From a virus (taxonomy: Duplodnaviria; Caudoviricetes), in IMG/VR virus record IMGVR_UViG_3300049135_000090, positions 1 to 40,625 of that record: a DNA stretch of 40,625 nt; one strand, written 5' to 3'. The position numbers were made by a program, and so were the translations under genes. Below, in pieces: positions 15,615 to 38,859 of this stretch. The notes beneath the pieces were generated by a model. That model saw only the letters and a list, made by a program, of their open reading frames with translations. It was not told the DNA's origin and did no database searches. How positions within the stretch are numbered: position 1 is the first letter of the stretch; each line of letters begins with the position of its first letter.

Positions 15615-16550
15615 ATGGCCAGACCACCCACGCCAGATGCGTGGATCGCCGCCCTGCGCGCCGAGGGCATCACCGACATCGTCGAGATGCCCGGCTGGCG
15701 CACCAACAACCGCAATCACAAGGGCCCGTGGGGCGACGTCCACTCCACGATGATCCACCACACCGCCGGTGAAGGGCCGGGCCTGCCTTCGCTGGTCTTC
15801 AAGGGAACGGCATCCCTCCCTGGGCCGCTGTGCCACGACTACCTGGACCGGACCGGGCGGCTGTACCTGGTCGGCAACGGCCGCGCGAACCACGCGGGCA
15901 CGGTCGCGAGGAACGCCTACAACGCCGTGCTGAACGAATCCGCCACGCACCCGTACCCGGACTCCGCCGAGCCGGTCGACGGCAACGCCGTCAGCTACGG
16001 GCTCGAGGTAGAGAACTCGGGCGCCGTCGGCCGAACGTGGCCAGCCCGGCAGTACGACGTCGCCGTCCGCGTCCAGGCCGCACGCTGCCGCATGCACGGC
16101 TGGTCCGCCAACTCCGTGTGGGCACACAAGGAAGCCACCCGCCGGAAGCCCGTCGACCCGCGCCTCGACATGGACGCCTTCCGCCGCGACGTCGCCGAGC
16201 GGCTGCGACACCCCGCCGGCTGGAACCCCGGCTCCACCGCACCTACCCCGACCGAGGAGGACGACGTGGCACTGACCACCGATGACAAGAAGTGGATCGT
16301 CGCCACGATCCGCGCCGAGGTGGGCCGCGCTGTGGCTGCCTGGGCAAACGAGGACATCGACCCGCGGGACATCTTCCAGATTCAGCGCGACGCAGCGAAC
16401 TACGCCAAGCGGGCCGCCGAGCAGACCGCGGATCTCGACCTCGGAGGCGTCACCGACGAGCAGACCGCCGCGATCGCGCAGGCGGTCGCCACACACCCGG
16501 CGTTGGCGCAGGCCCTCGCCGACACCCTCGCCGCCAGGCTCAAGGACTGA
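15615..16550 (+). CDS. Endolysin, N-acetylmuramoyl-L-alanine amidase
   Basis: IHHTAG, LPGPLCH, GRANHAG, YGLEVEN, HKE..KPVDP zinc-amidase motifs; RBS GGAGG. Confidence 0.93.
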   Translation: MARPPTPDAWIAALRAEGITDIVEMPGWRTNNRNHKGPWGDVHSTMIHHTAGEGPGLPSLVFKGTASLPGPLCHDYLDRTGRLYLVGNGRANHAGTVARNAYNAVLNESATHPYPDSAEPVDGNAVSYGLEVENSGAVGRTWPARQYDVAVRVQAARCRMHGWSANSVWAHKEATRRKPVDPRLDMDAFRRDVAERLRHPAGWNPGSTAPTPTEEDDVALTTDDKKWIVATIRAEVGRAVAAWANEDIDPRDIFQIQRDAANYAKRAAEQTADLDLGGVTDEQTAAIAQAVATHPALAQALADTLAARLKD

Positions 16551-17277: not shown

Positions 17278-17532
17278 ATGCGCAAATACGAGATCAGGTA
17301 TCACGTGCTGCCCGCCGGCCTCGGTCCCGACGACTACGAGACCAAGGACCTCGAGGAGCGGACCGGGATTTTCGAGTTCCCCGACGCCGCCCCAGAGGAC
17401 ACGTTCGAGCTGCTGGGCAAGCCGACCGAGTACGGCCCGGCGTACCCGGACGTGAAGGCTGCCATCGCGGCAACGCTGCAGCCTGGCGAGACGCCTCTGT
17501 TCTCGGTCCAGACGATGCGACGCGTGGACTAG
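17278..17532 (+). CDS. Small hypothetical moron protein (84 aa), likely leaderless
   Basis: MRKYEIRYHVLP..; TAGCCT -10 lies 7 nt before ATG; good codon bias. Confidence 0.7.
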   Translation: MRKYEIRYHVLPAGLGPDDYETKDLEERTGIFEFPDAAPEDTFELLGKPTEYGPAYPDVKAAIAATLQPGETPLFSVQTMRRVD

Positions 17533-18572
17533 AGCCGCCGCTCCGCCGCCGCGAGCTGCGCCTGGTAATGCGTCAGGTCCCGCGGGTATCCCTCGAGGCG
17601 CGGAATGGCCTCCCGGAAGCCGGCGGCCGCGTCCGCCCAGCGGTGGCATGCAGCAGCTACGTCAGCCGCCTGCAGGCGTGCTCGGACCGGTGTCAGGAAG
17701 TACAGCCAGCCCGGCCGATCCGCCTCGTCCGGCGCGCGCAGCGCGAGCTCGAGGGCCTGGTCCGAGAGGTGCATAGCGCGGTCCCTCTCCCCGACGGCCG
17801 CGGCCGCCATCGCGGCCGTGTGGGCGGCCGCGGCCTCAGCTGCAGGTGTGAGGCGGCCCGGCTGTGCGCGGGCCGCCTCTGCCGTTCGCAGGGCGCGCAC
17901 GGGATCGCCGTGCCGCAGGCTGTAGTAGGAGCGGATCCGGTATGCCCAGGAGCTCATGTCTGGATGGCCGCCGTCGACAGCCCATCCGTGTGCCACATCG
18001 ATCCATGCCAGGGCCGGCCCGGGCTTCCTTTCCTGCCAGGCGACCCACGACAGCCAGTGCGCATGCTCGGCGGCGAGCAGCATCAGCCGGTCCGCGGTCG
18101 CCCCGGAGGCCAGGGGGATCAGATTGGTGACCGCGTCGAGCTGCGAGCGCACGGCGGGCCACACGTCTCTGCCGCCTGCCTCGTCCTCGTCGCGCCGGTG
18201 CTGGGCCAGGACCTGGCCGATCCAGTCTGCGGTGCGCAGGTCTGTGCGGCCTGTGGTGTGTCCGTGGGCCATCCGCTCGCGTAGCTCTGCTGGCGGCTCC
18301 CAGTCGTTCCGGGTGCGTCCCTGCTGTATGCCCGTCAGCTCCGCTGGCACTTGCAGCCCTTCAGTGATGCGGGCCATGACGTCGGCAGTTGTGACACGCC
18401 GACGGCCCGACTCGATCGCCGAGATGTGAGGCTGCGGCATTCCCGTGAGCCGCTCGAGCTCCCGCTGGGAGATGCCGGCGGCGCGCCTGTACTCGCGGAG
18501 GATGGCAGCCCAGTCTCCACGCGCCCAGGCGGCGCGCAGCCTTACGTCTGCCCAGAGTCCCCGACTACTCAT
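17529..18572 (-). CDS. XRE-family regulator with helical (TPR-like) C-terminal domain
   Basis: HTH YRRAAGISQRELERLTGMPQPHISAIESGRR; Ala-rich repeats; PGWLYF motif. Confidence 0.85.
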   Translation of the reverse strand: MSSRGLWADVRLRAAWARGDWAAILREYRRAAGISQRELERLTGMPQPHISAIESGRRRVTTADVMARITEGLQVPAELTGIQQGRTRNDWEPPAELRERMAHGHTTGRTDLRTADWIGQVLAQHRRDEDEAGGRDVWPAVRSQLDAVTNLIPLASGATADRLMLLAAEHAHWLSWVAWQERKPGPALAWIDVAHGWAVDGGHPDMSSWAYRIRSYYSLRHGDPVRALRTAEAARAQPGRLTPAAEAAAAHTAAMAAAAVGERDRAMHLSDQALELALRAPDEADRPGWLYFLTPVRARLQAADVAAACHRWADAAAGFREAIPRLEGYPRDLTHYQAQLAAAERRL

Positions 18573-18671: not shown

Positions 18672-19079
18672 ATGAACCTTCACAGCAATGCGCAGGTTAA
18701 GGACAGCGAGACGCGGGAGCAGTGCTCCGCGGCCGGGCGGGACGCGAGACCGCTCGACATCCCCACGATGCGCGCCACGGTTCGGCGCCTCTATTCGATG
18801 GACGGGACCGCGACGCTCGAGGACCTGGACGAAATCACGGAGCTGCTGCGTGGGCACGTGCGTCTCATGGTCCCGGAGCTGCGGGACGTGATCCGCCGAC
18901 AGCCGGCCGGTGACGTCGGCGCCCAGATCGCGGAGTACGGCGTCGATGAGGCATGGCGCAGGCTGAACACAACGCCGGGCTTCGGGTCCGAAGCCATTTA
19001 CCGTCGCGCCCGGAAACTCGCCATGTCCGTGCAGTCGCTCTGCGACCACTACGAGACGTTCAACCCGCCGGCCAGCTGA
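18672..19079 (+). CDS. DUF6415-like Streptomyces protein
   Basis: PLDIPTMR..LLRGHVRLMVPE..EAWRRL..ARKLA.SV.SLCDHYE pattern; RBS GGGAG. Confidence 0.65.
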   Translation: MNLHSNAQVKDSETREQCSAAGRDARPLDIPTMRATVRRLYSMDGTATLEDLDEITELLRGHVRLMVPELRDVIRRQPAGDVGAQIAEYGVDEAWRRLNTTPGFGSEAIYRRARKLAMSVQSLCDHYETFNPPAS

Positions 19080-19215
19080 GCCGCTCCACACCCACGGCGA
19101 CCGAATCGGGTCAGGGTCGCACCCCCAAGAGCCCCCGCCCCGGGCCTATCCCCGGCAGGACCGTGCCCGGGGCGGGTTGCAAGGACAGTCACGTCCCACC
19201 TGAGAGGACATCACG

Positions 19216-19557
19216 ATGGGCACCATCAGCAACGGCATCAGCAGCAAGCCGTACGACAACGTGCACGCGGTCGGCCTGGACTGGCGCAAGAGCAGCCGTA
19301 CCGACCTGGATCCGATCTTGAAGGACTGCGTGATCCTGGCCGCCGCCCCGGAGGCGCACGGCCACCCGCACTACAGCATTCCCGACGGGACCCGCATGGT
19401 CGCCCTCTCGGACGACAAGGACACTGCCAGTCCGGTCCTGTACTTCAGCCGCGCGGAGATCCGCAAGTTCCTCGAGGGCGCCAAGGCCGGCGAGTTCGAC
19501 GACCTGATGGCGACGGACGAGGAGTTGGAGCAGGCCGCCGCCGCGGTGGCCGGCTGA
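19216..19557 (+). CDS. DUF397 (BldB-like) protein
   Basis: LDWRKSSRT..CV..A..VALSDDKD..PVLYFSRAE..FL.GAKAGEFD. Confidence 0.88.
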   Translation: MGTISNGISSKPYDNVHAVGLDWRKSSRTDLDPILKDCVILAAAPEAHGHPHYSIPDGTRMVALSDDKDTASPVLYFSRAEIRKFLEGAKAGEFDDLMATDEELEQAAAAVAG

Positions 19558-31033: not shown

Positions 31034-31468
31034 ATGTCTCAGCCGATCCCTGCCCCTCGCGACCCCAGCACCCGCCAGACCACGCCCGACCTGCGCGCCG
31101 TCGGTCCGGCCGAGCCCGCACCGATCACAGTCGGCCAGCTCCTGGCCTGGGCCGCCGCCCACCCGGAGAAGACGCTCCGCGACCACGCCGAGAAGGCGCG
31201 CACCCACCTGGACGCCCTGCGCAGCCGCCACCAGGCCGATGCCGAACTGACGGCCATCGCGCTGGAAGCGAAGGACCTCGAGGAGCGGCTGGCCCAACTG
31301 CGGGCCCGCGAGACCCAGCTGCAGCCGAAGAAGGCCCGCCGTCCTCGCGACCACGAACCGGCCGCCGTCCGCACCTGGGCGAAGGAGCACGGCATCGACT
31401 GCCCCGCGACCGGCCGCGTGCCCGCCGCCGTCGTCGACCAGTGGCGCACCGCCCAGGCCGGTGAGTGA
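31034..31468 (+). CDS. Lsr2-like DNA-binding domain protein
   Basis: C-terminal AVRTWAKEHGIDCPATGRVPAAVVDQW resembles the Lsr2 DNA-binding domain; central coiled coil; RBS AGGAG. Confidence 0.85.
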   Translation: MSQPIPAPRDPSTRQTTPDLRAVGPAEPAPITVGQLLAWAAAHPEKTLRDHAEKARTHLDALRSRHQADAELTAIALEAKDLEERLAQLRARETQLQPKKARRPRDHEPAAVRTWAKEHGIDCPATGRVPAAVVDQWRTAQAGE

Positions 31469-34327: not shown

Positions 34328-34366
34328 CGGCGCAGCCCCCGACCGTGGTGGTCGGGGGCTGCGCCG
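34328..34366. terminator. Bidirectional terminator hairpin
   Basis: 17-bp stem CGGCGCAGCCCCCGACC/GGTCGGGGGCTGCGCCG between convergent genes. Confidence 0.8.
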
Positions 34367-34374
34367 CGCGTGGG

Positions 34375-34638
34375 CTACTCGCCGGAGGCCGGCGGCTTGC
34401 CTTTCAGGTCGGTGCGCTCGCCCGGGCGCAATTTGCGGTTGGCGAAGTACGGCCGAGCCAGCTTGTAGTCGACGGCCTTGGAGCGGCCTACCTGCACGAC
34501 CGGCGGGAAGTCCGCGTCCTGCTGGGCCAGCTGCGATACGCGCTGGTGGGTGATCCGGGGGACGACCCCGTCAGCCACGAGCCGCCTGGCCAGCTCCCTG
34601 AACGACACCATGTCTGGCCCTCCTTCGGGCTCGGTCAT
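34375..34638 (-). CDS. Small HTH DNA-binding protein (putative Kor-like repressor of the spread cassette)
   Basis: VSFRELARRL..ITHQRVSQLA..DFPP..VGR..D AlpA/Xis-like pattern; divergent from the membrane operon. Confidence 0.75.
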   Translation of the reverse strand: MTEPEGGPDMVSFRELARRLVADGVVPRITHQRVSQLAQQDADFPPVVQVGRSKAVDYKLARPYFANRKLRPGERTDLKGKPPASGE

Positions 34639-34653
34639 GGGCATCATCCTCCC

Positions 34654-34690
34654 TGACCTACTTGCCATATGGCAAGTAGGTCACTACCTT
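34654..34690. promoter_or_regulatory. 30-bp perfect palindromic operator overlapping divergent promoters
   Basis: TGACCTACTTGCCATATGGCAAGTAGGTCA (34654-34683); TTGCCA-N17-TACCTT rightward, TTGCCA-N18-GAGGAT leftward. Confidence 0.85.
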
Positions 34691-34785
34691 GGGTCGGGCA
34701 ACAGAGCGGCCCCCGGCCGGAGTTCGCAGCTCCACATGGCCGGGGGCCAGACCCACCCACAACCTCACGAAGGAGCGGGTCCGCC

Positions 34786-35112
34786 ATGGAGCGTATCCCC
34801 ACCACCCCGACCAGCGCAGAGCCCGTCGACTACGACGAGCTGCTCCGCGAGATCCTCAGCTCGCCCTCGAACCCGGCCATCCTCATCGAGGCCATCGCCG
34901 AGCAGCTCGAGGACAACCCCTTCCTGGTCGCCAACTGGACCGTCGTCTCCGACGCCATCCGCGAGGCCAGCGCCCAGGTCCTCGAGGGCCTGCCCGAGGT
35001 CATCGTCACCGAGACGATCATGCTCGCCAACATGCGCATGCCGCTCCCGTACCCGGGCGAGCAGGCCGGCCCGTACGCCGCCCGCCTGTACACGGCAGCG
35101 AGGTACGTGTGA
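34786..35112 (+). CDS. Hypothetical acidic protein, first gene of cassette
   Basis: RBS AAGGAG; strong codon bias. Confidence 0.75.
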   Translation: MERIPTTPTSAEPVDYDELLREILSSPSNPAILIEAIAEQLEDNPFLVANWTVVSDAIREASAQVLEGLPEVIVTETIMLANMRMPLPYPGEQAGPYAARLYTAARYV

Positions 35113-35237
35113 TGGCCGAGCAGACCGACGTCGTCGACGACCAGCGGGCCACCGAGCAGCAGCTGCAGCAGCGTGCCGCCGACGACTACCGCACCGCGCA
35201 GGCCGCCCGCGAGCAGGACTCGCACCGCGCCGCCTGA
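35112..35237 (+). CDS. Small helical peptide (41 aa)
   Basis: TGATG coupling; MAEQTDVVDDQRATEQQLQQRAADDY.. Confidence 0.55.
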   Translation: MAEQTDVVDDQRATEQQLQQRAADDYRTAQAAREQDSHRAA

Positions 35238-35308
35238 CCACCAGACCGGCCGGGCCCGCAGCCCCACCGCCGCGGGCCCGGCCACCTTCTGCGCTCCGGA
35301 GGAGCCCC

Positions 35309-36166
35309 GTGAAGACCCGCACCGATACCCGCTACCGGTGGGAGCCCCACACCGTCGACGGCGAGACCGAGCTCGTCCGCGTCCCCTACGACGTCCAGGT
35401 CCCGCTCCCGCCCCGCGACTGGGACCAGCTCGTACGCACCGCCGTCACCGCCGGCGCCTGCCTCCTCGTGACCGTGTCCGTCATCTGGTCGACCGCCAGC
35501 ATCGGCGACCTCCTCGCTCGCGTCGTCGTCTCGGCCGCCGCGTACGGGGCCGCCGTCGCCTTCGACACCGCATGGATCATGTGCATGGCCGTCGAATGGC
35601 TCTGCCGCTACGACCCGCCCCGCGCCCGCACCGCCCGCCGCGCCGGCCACGTCGCCCTGCTGCTCGCCATGGGCGCCGTATTCGCGCACGGCCACATCGC
35701 CGACCAGATCGTCATCGGCGCCGTCGGCGCGCTCGTCTCCGCGCTCGCCAAGGGCGCCTGGACGATCGCCATGTCGGTCCACGCCCGCCCGCTCGACGAG
35801 CGCACCCAGCAGTGGGTCGCCGCCCGCCGCGCCGCCCTCGACGGACAGCGCGCCATGATCCCCGTCCGGCGTGACCTCCTGCGCAGCCAGGCCCTGATCG
35901 CCGCTGAGCGTGCCGCGCTCGCCGGTCCGGACACCAATCCGGATCCGGATCCGGACCAGTCCGGACAGGACACGGACAGTCCGGAGGGTGATCCGCAGCA
36001 GTCCTTCACCGGGCCCATGACCGTGAAGGACGCAGTCCGGACCGCCCTGGACAGTGGCATGACCGATCCGGATCGCGTGCTCGCCTACGTCCGGACGCGG
36101 GCGGACGCGAACGCCAAGCCTGAGACCGTCAACCGCTACATGCGCCTCGCGAAGCTGGCCGGCTGA
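35309..36166 (+). CDS. SpdB-like four-TM membrane protein with repeat linker and C-terminal putative DNA-binding domain
   Basis: GTG after GGAGGAG; four hydrophobic segments (WSTASIGDLL, AYGAAVAFDTAWI); PD/QSG repeats; basic end ETVNRYMRLAK. Confidence 0.7.
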   Translation: MKTRTDTRYRWEPHTVDGETELVRVPYDVQVPLPPRDWDQLVRTAVTAGACLLVTVSVIWSTASIGDLLARVVVSAAAYGAAVAFDTAWIMCMAVEWLCRYDPPRARTARRAGHVALLLAMGAVFAHGHIADQIVIGAVGALVSALAKGAWTIAMSVHARPLDERTQQWVAARRAALDGQRAMIPVRRDLLRSQALIAAERAALAGPDTNPDPDPDQSGQDTDSPEGDPQQSFTGPMTVKDAVRTALDSGMTDPDRVLAYVRTRADANAKPETVNRYMRLAKLAG

Positions 36167-36783
36167 TGGGCCCCGAGCAGGGCGCCGACGAGCGCCGGAT
36201 CAGCAACTGGCTGCGCCGCAGGGGAGTGGGCCCCGACGCCACACCGCCCGAGCGGACCACCGTGTCCGTCACCGTGCCCCACGAGCGCGACTGGCTGGAC
36301 CGGATCATCGCGGACACAGCCACGGACAGCAGTCCGGACCAGTCCGGACCGGCCGATCCGGGGGAGTCCACCCCCTGGTGGAAGACGAGCAAGGACACCA
36401 CCCCGGCCGCTCCTGCGCCCGCTCCGGTCCAGGAGCAGCCCGGCGTCCACGTCACCATCGTCCCGCCGGCCGCCGCCCCCGTGGACCCGCGCCGGGCCCG
36501 GATCCGCTGGTGGGTCCTGCGCCGCGGTACCGCCGCCGGCCTCGGCTGGCTGACCGGTCTCGGGCCTCTCGTACAGCAGCGCCTCACCGAGTCCGGCCCC
36601 GGGGCGCTCGGGTTCGCCCTGCTCCTGTGGCTGGTCTCCTGGTACGCCGCCGCCAAGGTCCTGCGCCTGGTCCCGGCCGAGGCCATCCAAGAGGTGAAGG
36701 ACGCAGCCGACTGGGCCGCCCACATCCCCTCCGCCACCGTCCTCCTCGCCCTCGCCCTCCACACCCCAGGAGCCATGCTGTGA
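36166..36783 (+). CDS. Membrane protein of putative spread cassette
   Basis: TGATG coupling; Pro-rich N-half, three hydrophobic segments. Confidence 0.75.
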   Translation: MGPEQGADERRISNWLRRRGVGPDATPPERTTVSVTVPHERDWLDRIIADTATDSSPDQSGPADPGESTPWWKTSKDTTPAAPAPAPVQEQPGVHVTIVPPAAAPVDPRRARIRWWVLRRGTAAGLGWLTGLGPLVQQRLTESGPGALGFALLLWLVSWYAAAKVLRLVPAEAIQEVKDAADWAAHIPSATVLLALALHTPGAML

Positions 36784-37229
36784 CCCCGATCGCCGCCCCC
36801 GCCGCCATCTTCGGAGGCCTCGGCACCGGAGGCCTCGCACTTGCCATCACCGTCCTGCTCGTCCTCGGCGTCCGCGGCAACGGCCGCGTCAAGCTCACCG
36901 CCAGCCCCGCCGCATACGTCGCCTTCCTGGCCGCCACGGCAGCCTCCGCCGCAGGCCAGATGTGGGCCAACCCCGAGAAGGTCGTAGGCCAGGGCCTGAC
37001 CGGCCTCGGCGTCGGCCAGGGGACCAGCGGCCCGTTCGGCGACGTCCAACTCGGCGCGGTCGCCCTGATCCTCCTGATCGTGTTCCTGACCGCCTCCGTC
37101 AGCCCCTGGTTCGGCGCGGCCCTCGGGGCCATCGCAGGGTTCGTGTGGCCGGCCACCGGTGACGGCACGATCTGGGCCATCCCCTGCGCGCTGGCCAAGG
37201 CCTTCCTGGCAATGCTGGGAGGCGGCTGA
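36780..37229 (+). CDS. Gly/Ala-rich multi-TM protein of putative spread cassette
   Basis: GTGA coupling, RBS AGGAG; almost entirely hydrophobic. Confidence 0.75.
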   Translation: MTPIAAPAAIFGGLGTGGLALAITVLLVLGVRGNGRVKLTASPAAYVAFLAATAASAAGQMWANPEKVVGQGLTGLGVGQGTSGPFGDVQLGAVALILLIVFLTASVSPWFGAALGAIAGFVWPATGDGTIWAIPCALAKAFLAMLGGG

Positions 37230-37230
37230 C

Positions 37231-37830
37231 ATGCGCGTCTGGATCGCCATCTGGACCGGATCCACCGTCATCTGCGGCCGGATCGGCGCCTGGATCGCCG
37301 GCGGCCCCGTACCCCGCCTGATCCTCCTCGTGTTCGTCGCCGGGTTCGCCAAGGGCCTACACCGCACCACCGAGCTCGCCTACACCGCGGCCGGCGCCTG
37401 GATCGTCACCGCCATCACCCTCGGGCTCCGCCCACCGGCCGCAGCCGCGGCCCCGGCAGCGCCCGAGAAGCCCGCACTCACCCCGGAAGCGGTCACCGCC
37501 GCCATGCACCAACTCGCCGCGCCCCACGTCCAACTGGCGCCCCTCGCCGAGCACCTGTCGACCACCACCGCCGCCCTCCGCACGGTCCTCGGCGAGATGG
37601 GCGTACCGATCGCGGGCGGGGTGCGCATGAAGGGCCACGGCGTATCAACCGGCGTCAAGGCCGAGGACCTGCCGCCCCGCTCCCCCACTGCTGCTCCCGG
37701 CACAGAAGGGGCGTTGACCAGCGACAACAACAGCAACAACGCCCTGATCGTGGAGCGCCAAGCGGGGATGTCGATCATCCGAGACCCGGCGGACCGGAAG
37801 CGTCGCCGCACGCTCCTCCGCCGCTCATAG
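37231..37830 (+). CDS. Membrane-anchored protein with C-terminal wHTH-like domain
   Basis: RBS GGGAGG; N-terminal TMs; HVQL..LAEHL..ALR.VL..GVP..GVRM..VSTGV. Confidence 0.7.
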   Translation: MRVWIAIWTGSTVICGRIGAWIAGGPVPRLILLVFVAGFAKGLHRTTELAYTAAGAWIVTAITLGLRPPAAAAAPAAPEKPALTPEAVTAAMHQLAAPHVQLAPLAEHLSTTTAALRTVLGEMGVPIAGGVRMKGHGVSTGVKAEDLPPRSPTAAPGTEGALTSDNNSNNALIVERQAGMSIIRDPADRKRRRTLLRRS

Positions 37831-37907: not shown

Positions 37908-38135
37908 ATGGCATTCGGCCGACGCAAGAACGAGAGCAGCAGCAGCGATGCCCGCGAGGCAGCGGCCCGGCTGCCGAAGACGATGCCCGCCCGCGACCCG
38001 AAGCAGGCTGTGCCCGAGAACCCGCATTCCAATCAGTACAGCGGGATCACCGCCGGGTACACGAACCGCGAAGAGAAGCCGGTCCCGGGCAGTGGGCAGC
38101 GCAGCCGCGGCGAATGGCTCCGCAAGAGCAGGTGA
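37908..38135 (+). CDS. Small basic hypothetical protein
   Basis: RBS CAGGA; MAFGRRK..; flanked by hairpins. Confidence 0.55.
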   Translation: MAFGRRKNESSSSDAREAAARLPKTMPARDPKQAVPENPHSNQYSGITAGYTNREEKPVPGSGQRSRGEWLRKSR

Positions 38136-38625: not shown

Positions 38626-38859
38626 CGACCGTTGTCAGCGCCCCGGCGTAGCGTGGACGCATCCCACCCGCGCTGATGGCTGCAGCGCTACTCAGAGCCC
38701 CTGTCCGGACCGATCCGGACAGGGGCTCGCGCGTGTCCGGACCGCTCCGGCTGGACATGATCGCCGTTTAGCACCACACTGCTGCCAGCAGCACACTTGT
38801 GCCCATAGCCACCTCAGCCCCCGCCCGCCGGGGGCTGACGCGTATCCAGGGAGGCACAC

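Follow-up and report, generated by a model that had tools for sequence, protein, structure and literature searches.

A TraB/Spd-related membrane gene block without the TraB ATPase in a temperate tailed phage genome

The window analysed here, i.e., the whole 40,625-nucleotide stretch of IMG/VR record IMGVR_UViG_3300049135_000090, is the genome of a temperate tailed phage (70% G+C) in which portal, prohead protease, capsid, tape measure, amidase, tyrosine integrase, and repressor genes and a terminal HNH gene were seen. Although these gene modules look complete, the virus record is without end repeats and reaches 43% in CheckV, so its completeness is not proven. It contains a cassette in which a hairpin, a small divergent gene, a palindrome, two open reading frames (ORFs) of 108 and 41 amino acids (aa), four membrane genes starting at 35309, 36166, 36780, and 37231 (hereafter A, B, C, and D), and a small ORF at 37908 follow one another (Table 1). 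An initial annotation of this DNA had described a largely coupled operon with four consecutive membrane proteins, and both features were borne out: TGATG overlaps are present at 35112 and 36166, a GTGA overlap at 36780, and a 1-nt gap at 37230, with a 71-nt gap upstream of A, and hydrophobic segments were found in A (four, at residues 41-147), B (two), C (three to five), and D (two or three). None of the cassette proteins matched Pfam or NCBIfam, and the named close homologues of the cassette are all from Streptomyces.

Table 1. Features of the cassette and its surroundings (window positions; TM, transmembrane)
Feature	Position	Strand	Basis or remark
Perfect 17-bp inverted repeat between convergent genes, likely terminator	34328..34366	.	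repeat search
Small divergent DNA-binding gene (87 aa), likely repressor	34375..34638	-	relatives and palindrome pairing
Perfect 30-bp palindrome, likely operator	34654..34683	.	arm of 15
108-aa soluble protein, first gene of the operon	34786..35112	+	phrog_28251, E 7e-6; family in 96 loci
41-aa ORF, TGATG-coupled to the preceding gene	35112..35237	+	overlap
A, SpdB-like protein	35309..36166	+	hhalign to pIJ101 SpdB; atlas neighbours PF27080; structure model
TCCGGA array, 11 copies in all three frames, 3' third of A and start of B	35926..36348	.	predicted binding array for A C-terminal domain
B, Pro-rich N-terminus and 2-3 TM helices	36166..36783	+	no library match
C, Gly-rich multi-TM protein	36780..37229	+	sister family precedes TraB on large linear plasmids
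D, two TM helices and TraB-type winged helix, without ATPase	37231..37830	+	model; profile comparison
Short CAAC-type repeat after the D winged helix, in frame, predicted clt-like site	37722..37742	+	word scan
Small basic ORF, frequent cassette end	37908..38135	+	28 loci
Second TCCGGA cluster, intergenic, 3 copies, forms hairpin	38704..38741	.	word scan

Protein A is composed of an N-terminal beta hairpin, four TM helices, a long helix, a linker, and a three-helix C-terminal domain, and its model shows four long helices and the C-terminal domain at a predicted local distance difference test score (pLDDT) of ~95. The four TMs and the C-terminal domain anticipated for this protein were thus present, but the basicity of that domain is only mild (9 K/R against 6 D/E in the last 50 residues) and what had been taken for a repeat linker exists at the DNA level as an array and not only as a repeated peptide. 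The profile comparison with SpdB that had been suggested earlier gave a match of 92.6% (E 4.7e-7, 106 ungapped columns) when the profile of A (126 sequences) was aligned by hhalign to 120 homologues of pIJ101 SpdB, and the A profile matched 53 of the 120 SpdB sequences at E<1e-3. The atlas neighbours of A are SpdB_N (PF27080) clusters (0.93 and 0.89), and only unnamed families were found for it in PHROG. The name 'protein transporter Sec31', which homologues bear in NCBI, was rejected because domain searches lend it no support. The A profile was not significant against the single sequences of pIJ101 SpdB or pSVH1 SpdB2, and Foldseek of the A model returned nothing at E<=0.001. The pIJ101 SpdB (SpdB_N, PF27080, in Pfam 38) and pSVH1 SpdB2 proteins share with A a four-TM domain, a long helix, a linker, and a small helical C-terminal domain, and their genes likewise lie in a coupled operon under a divergent repressor. 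However, A differs from pIJ101 SpdB in being remote, in its extra beta hairpin at the N-terminus, in a different C-terminal domain, in its own word array, and in the lack of TraB in the operon, and it has no sequence match to pSVH1 SpdB2.

Protein D is 199 aa long, and its model consists of membrane helices and a winged helix at residues 85-142 (pLDDT 90-97), in agreement with the TMs and the helix-turn-helix (HTH)-like domain noted in the initial annotation. The top Foldseek rows of this model are mostly winged-helix proteins, none of which reaches E 0.001. When the winged-helix profile of D was searched over 401 Streptomyces genomes, it also picked up long P-loop proteins at their C-termini, and the FtsK_SpoIIIE cut-off is passed by four of these proteins. 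In a profile-profile comparison, the D winged helix matched seven TraB C-termini (five of them picked because they matched the D profile) at 95.7% (E 8.5e-9), compared with 0.5% or less for four control profiles. The earlier statement that no FtsK/TraB ATPase is recognizable in this genome also held: PF01580 (FtsK) had no match at E<=1 anywhere in it, and neither did a profile of the TraB ATPase core, which recovered 14 of 14 left-out members (13 strongly) and replaced a first six-member TraB profile that had missed 4 of 6. Like TraB of the pSVH1 and pSAM2 type, D has N-terminal membrane helices, and a C-terminal winged helix (resembling one group of TraB tails), and the repeat that comes next, clear in most relatives but short and coding in this genome, is a candidate clt-like array; however, D has no FtsK ATPase and is far shorter than the 650-850 aa of TraB. 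Judged by these comparisons, D is best described as a TraB remnant that keeps the membrane anchor and the winged helix without the ATPase, and it may be read as standing in the place of TraB, with the motor lost or never possessed.

Protein B has no match in the Pfam, NCBIfam, and PHROG libraries, and hhalign of the B, C, and D profiles against SpdB homologues gave no match (best 20%). Across loci, each B type pairs strictly with a C type. The C type of this genome (C8) is linked to a sister family (C4) by a match of only E 8e-4 plus an identical position, and NZ_CP108263 has two C4-family genes (E 1e-26 to 1e-28) immediately ahead of a full TraB. NZ_CP134613 shows, as judged by gene order and annotation, the same arrangement, with an annotated FtsK/SpoIIIE gene as its last member. 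These data suggest that C belongs to TraB operons. As a separate observation, two loci on large linear plasmids (L249, 2708-10860 of NZ_CP108263, and L251) hold an uncharacterised operon in which a GGACCG array accompanies a long multi-TM protein with coiled coils, followed by a pair of C-family genes, TraB, and a CCGATC array.

Arrays of short DNA words accompany both A and D. In the last 110 codons of A, TCCGGA occurs 9 times versus 0.8 expected from amino acids and codon usage (p 0.003), and its excess was not significant in four control genes. The array is present in all 71 A genes with the same type of C-terminus (437 words seen, 41.6 expected), and other C-terminal types carry GCATC or CGGACA words. 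A second cluster with 3 or more TCCGGA in 120 bp was found in 28 of these 71; the other words were too common for this count, so the idea that a second cluster always follows the A word elsewhere was rejected and the pattern is informative for TCCGGA only. Genes of the spdB2 type with 3' word arrays were also noticed in pJV1 (L150, 666-1781, GCTCAC) and in phage VWB (gp24; L151, 3918-5234, GCACCC).

For D, 120 of 131 genes carry an enriched word past the winged helix, versus 7 of 315 random regions; before this count, proteins over 600 aa and three spurious rows were removed, and the regions tested were also the source of the ten word classes. In several classes the arrays are mostly non-coding (all 48 CCTACC words and 121 of 160 GGTAGA words lie 3' of the stop codon), and in the cases from plasmids and from phages like Kromp the array is a direct-repeat run 3' of the stop codon, as is clt after traB. 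The word of the CAAC class occurs in more than one frame across the class. When only winged helices under 45% identity are compared, a gene and its nearest such neighbour have the same word in 78 of 120 cases (17 by chance); for the nearest A the agreement is weak (38 of 98; 23.5 by chance). The columns that best predict the word are the wing and the start of helix 3 of the winged helix. Helix 3 of TraB reportedly reads the clt repeat (Vogelmann, 2011, is said to have described this). The same array scan recovers the known pSVH1 clt, GACCCGGA, the consensus given in PMC5133688.

Upstream of the operon, the likely terminator shows no T-tract and was not called by a T-tract terminator scan, so the terminator proposed earlier is a probable one, marked by the perfect inverted repeat. 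The divergent HTH gene of the initial annotation is present (its start was picked by likeness to relatives), but its product has no Pfam, NCBIfam, or PHROG match and no GntR match, and it is an HTH protein, not of the GntR type, by resemblance only. Relatives that are 67-75% identical occupy the same place in 7 loci. The palindrome is the longest of the window (best arm 7-11 in 30 base shuffles), and its TTGCCA-NN-TGGCAA core is found in 5 of the 7 closest repressor relatives, with a related core in the other two. Considering that different palindromes occupy this site in other repressor clades, i.e., that the palindrome type tracks the repressor type, its assignment as the operator, already made at first, is supported. 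A divergent GntR repressor of the TraR/KorA type, as in TraB/Spd systems, was not found here, although there is a palindrome resembling an operator; a GntR gene does occur where the cassette is on plasmids. Within the operon, tblastn of other loci gave no homologue of the 41-aa ORF, and the ORF after D has a relative (E 2e-12) on the TraB-less plasmid NZ_CP109464.

Among 133 A loci with 4 kb of downstream sequence (some duplicated between collections, with profiles built from the same loci), B, C, and D all lie downstream of A in 117 and none does in five, three of which have a TraB-like ATPase beside A, the other two being phage SF3. The block is present in three isolated phages, namely VWB (gp21-gp27), Kromp (gp82-85), and TurkishDelight (gp97-100), and phiC31 matched no cassette profile. 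The cassette has a fixed position before the terminase, and terminase or portal markers were seen for 51 of the 61 genome loci whose downstream sequence spans 9 kb. PF01580 was detected in 6 of 6 control plasmids and in 4 of 67 IMG/VR records, 29-48 kb from the cassette in three of the four, and was not found in VWB, Kromp, TurkishDelight, SF3, or NZ_CP109464. The median ratio of nonsynonymous to synonymous substitution rates (dN/dS) is 0.19-0.48 for all seven families, and no pair reaches 1. The D domain was detected at E<=1e-8 in 87 of 401 Streptomyces genomes (one of them the known centre). The block also occurs on the complete 10.3-kb circular plasmid NZ_CP109464, a 10.9-kb circular Rep_1 contig (L207; G437:C43), an integrative element (L219), and larger plasmid-like contigs; these blocks lie behind a GntR gene, with a DUF2637 protein or another multi-TM protein, and no TraB was found in the DNA examined of any of them. 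DUF2637 proteins fill the Spd slot in these plasmids and also in VWB, which differs from the present cassette in this first slot. Since the 40 survey matches examined were picked among weaker scores, the plasmid-type cases should not be taken as proportions. Thus, the B-C-D block appears to be a maintained motor-less TraB/Spd module, because it is intact in most loci, has dN/dS below 1, and is found in isolated phages and TraB-less plasmids. The initial annotation had asked whether the cassette recurs in prophages without traB, which it does, under purifying selection, and had named two adverse outcomes, no Spd similarity or homologues only in decayed integrative and conjugative elements of actinomycetes (AICEs); instead, A is SpdB-related and the block is conserved in phages. 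Its picture of a virion-forming phage with a plasmid-type apparatus agrees with the Spd/TraB homology, but the apparatus is not phage-specific.

Several carriers have features of their own. The Rep_1 contig also encodes a MobA/VirD2-like relaxase. The integrative element (G204:C13, about 103800-114100) has an integrase, a DnaB_N/DUF3987 replication gene, a GntR-NUDIX gene, and B-C-D where traB would be. Four loci at contig ends (L214, L215, L218, and L231) combine a replication gene like that at window 28705 with GntR, WhiB-like, and DUF2637 genes and B-C-D, and thus resemble a phage-like replicon with plasmid-type regulation. A 103-kb circular record named a plasmid (L003, NZ_CP134608) carries a phage-type cassette, phage-like small genes, and ParB and is possibly a phage-plasmid, and in a 94-kb provirus (L053, 10001-16441) an A-family gene lies 4 kb before a full TraB, with no B-C-D.

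We consider it tentatively (a probability of roughly 45%) that the cassette is a motor-less derivative of a Streptomyces TraB/Spd transfer operon which grips its own phage DNA at the hyphal membrane and aids its passage between compartments. Gripping of the element's own DNA at the membrane is likely, because two membrane-anchored, putatively DNA-binding proteins each lie beside an array of their own and are accompanied by two strictly pairing membrane proteins, and passage across cross-walls is the best guess because of the origin of the module. In such a scheme, the divergent protein would repress the operon at the palindrome, D would recognise the array at the 3' end of its own gene in the way that TraB does clt, A would bind the TCCGGA array and form or line a pore as SpdB2 does, and B and C would complete the membrane complex. 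Least certain is the moving force, which might come from an FtsK-type motor of the host, from TraB supplied by a different element, or from nothing more than diffusion and growth. The phage could then lysogenise or infect neighbouring compartments from a single entry point. For pSVH1 SpdB2, oligomeric pores, binding of DNA and peptidoglycan, and a role in spreading have been described, and a phage Spd protein aiding the spread of phage DNA was already suggested in the discussion of the same paper (PMC4447253). The general idea is therefore not new; neither the B-C-D block nor the motor-less TraB nor the arrays were found described in the literature searched, which lacked most subscription papers, although supplementary annotation tables could mention the genes.

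A number of findings weigh against this interpretation. The missing motor is the main difficulty, because plasmid spreading needs TraB (PMC4447253 and PMC5133688) and none is present here. A is a remote SpdB relative rather than a plain member, because the reverse search with the SpdB profile found no A member under E 0.06 and the C-terminal domain did not match HTH_SpdB_C (hhalign 0.2%); PF27080 is also not listed for the 120 closest A homologues. The likeness of D concerns one TraB subgroup only, as the TraB tails of pSVH1, pSG5, pIJ101, and pJV1 do not match it, most of the tails compared were chosen by the D profile itself, and a weak search with the D alignment found no protein over 525 aa. 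The earlier label of a Spd-like cassette holds for A by SpdB homology, for D as a TraB remnant, and for C by its belonging to TraB operons, but B and C match no named Spd protein; on NZ_CP108263, the tail of the TraB after C does not match the D profile, and the gene upstream of C does not match the B profiles. The D array of this genome belongs to the CAAC class and is short and coding, the word classes were not defined independently of the regions tested, and linkage alone makes neighbours co-vary and could give part of the tracking of the word by the winged helix. No array was found in the spdB genes of pIJ101, pSVH1, and pSG5, and SpdB2 has been reported to bind DNA non-specifically. Finally, two contigs (L206 and G103:C3) hold both the module and TraB, so mutual exclusion of the two was rejected as a rule.

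The same cis arrays and anchors would also suit a membrane tether for partition or stability, which would hold excised phage or plasmid DNA at membranes, tips, and septa so that branches and spores inherit it, with no movement across cross-walls. No motor would be needed, the small TraB-less plasmids NZ_CP109464 (L148) and L207 show no par genes, and there is a precedent in pIJ101 SpdA2, which is described in PMC4170104 as binding to a palindrome within the gene that encodes it, with an effect on segregational stability but not on pocks. SpdA2 resembles the cassette in being a DNA-binding protein of a spread region (sps) with its target within its own coding region, but it acts on stability and is not a four-TM protein of the A family. 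However, ParA or ParAB is encoded by several carriers as well, a prophage that integrates can do without a partition system, and the ancestry lies in transfer operons, and we regard this explanation as rather doubtful.

A bolder proposal, which we consider unlikely, is that Spd-B-C-D might be a second, TraB-ATPase-free Streptomyces transfer machine in which D would act as a sequence-specific adaptor presenting DNA to a channel driven by a host motor, so that phages would spread as naked DNA. If so, this spread of phages would reach through mycelia and perhaps from one mycelium to another, and plasmids without TraB that are at present classed as non-transmissible would be mobile.

It is still less probable that the module serves exclusion or interference, either by blocking incoming related phage or plasmid DNA or by poisoning the TraB ring of a co-resident element with a motor-less subunit. 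Its moron-like placement, with a repressor and a terminator-like hairpin of its own, the resemblance of D to a truncated TraB, and the contigs with both module and TraB are consistent with such a role. However, the word that tracks the D winged helix adjoins D on its own element, and the arrays thus point to action on the element's own DNA; moreover, D is without the ATPase domains that presumably build the ring, and a self-repressed operon would probably be mostly off in a lysogen. A kil/kor-type growth inhibition or lysis control, in which derepression would produce membrane pores and arrest or kill the compartment, is improbable as well: SpdB2 forms pores, traB-traR act as kil-kor (PMC4447253), and the operator appears tight, but two cis arrays following their DNA-binding domains would be left unexplained, and the lysis genes lie elsewhere (amidase at 15615, outside the cassette). 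The view that the cassette is what remains of a plasmid or AICE after decay and no longer has a function, prompted by the missing TraB ATPase and the ready decay of AICEs (PMC9513070), is hardly credible, as it is already largely refuted by the intact gene order and dN/dS values, to which the fixed position and the presence in three isolated phages are added; nor does the window agree with the description of AICEs in PMC3218068 (Int, Rep, and TraB, no virion genes), having full head and tail modules and no TraB.

The questions raised by the module can be tested with named genes, domains, and DNA sites, because it is common and is present in VWB, long in use as a laboratory phage, and on a 10-kb plasmid, and the winged-helix/array pairs may offer a natural set of about ten protein-DNA specificities. 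Elsewhere in the window, genes for an NsdA-family fragment of a tetratricopeptide repeat regulator (above the NCBIfam cut-off), DUF6415, and DUF397 (17532-18272 on the minus strand, and 18672-19557) sit between the lysis genes and the integrase as cargo resembling developmental regulators. The early region encodes a protein with an Lsr2 DNA-binding domain (31034-31468). At the terminase position, a gene without a Pfam or NCBIfam match was found (558-2105), and several other loci have its relatives at that position.

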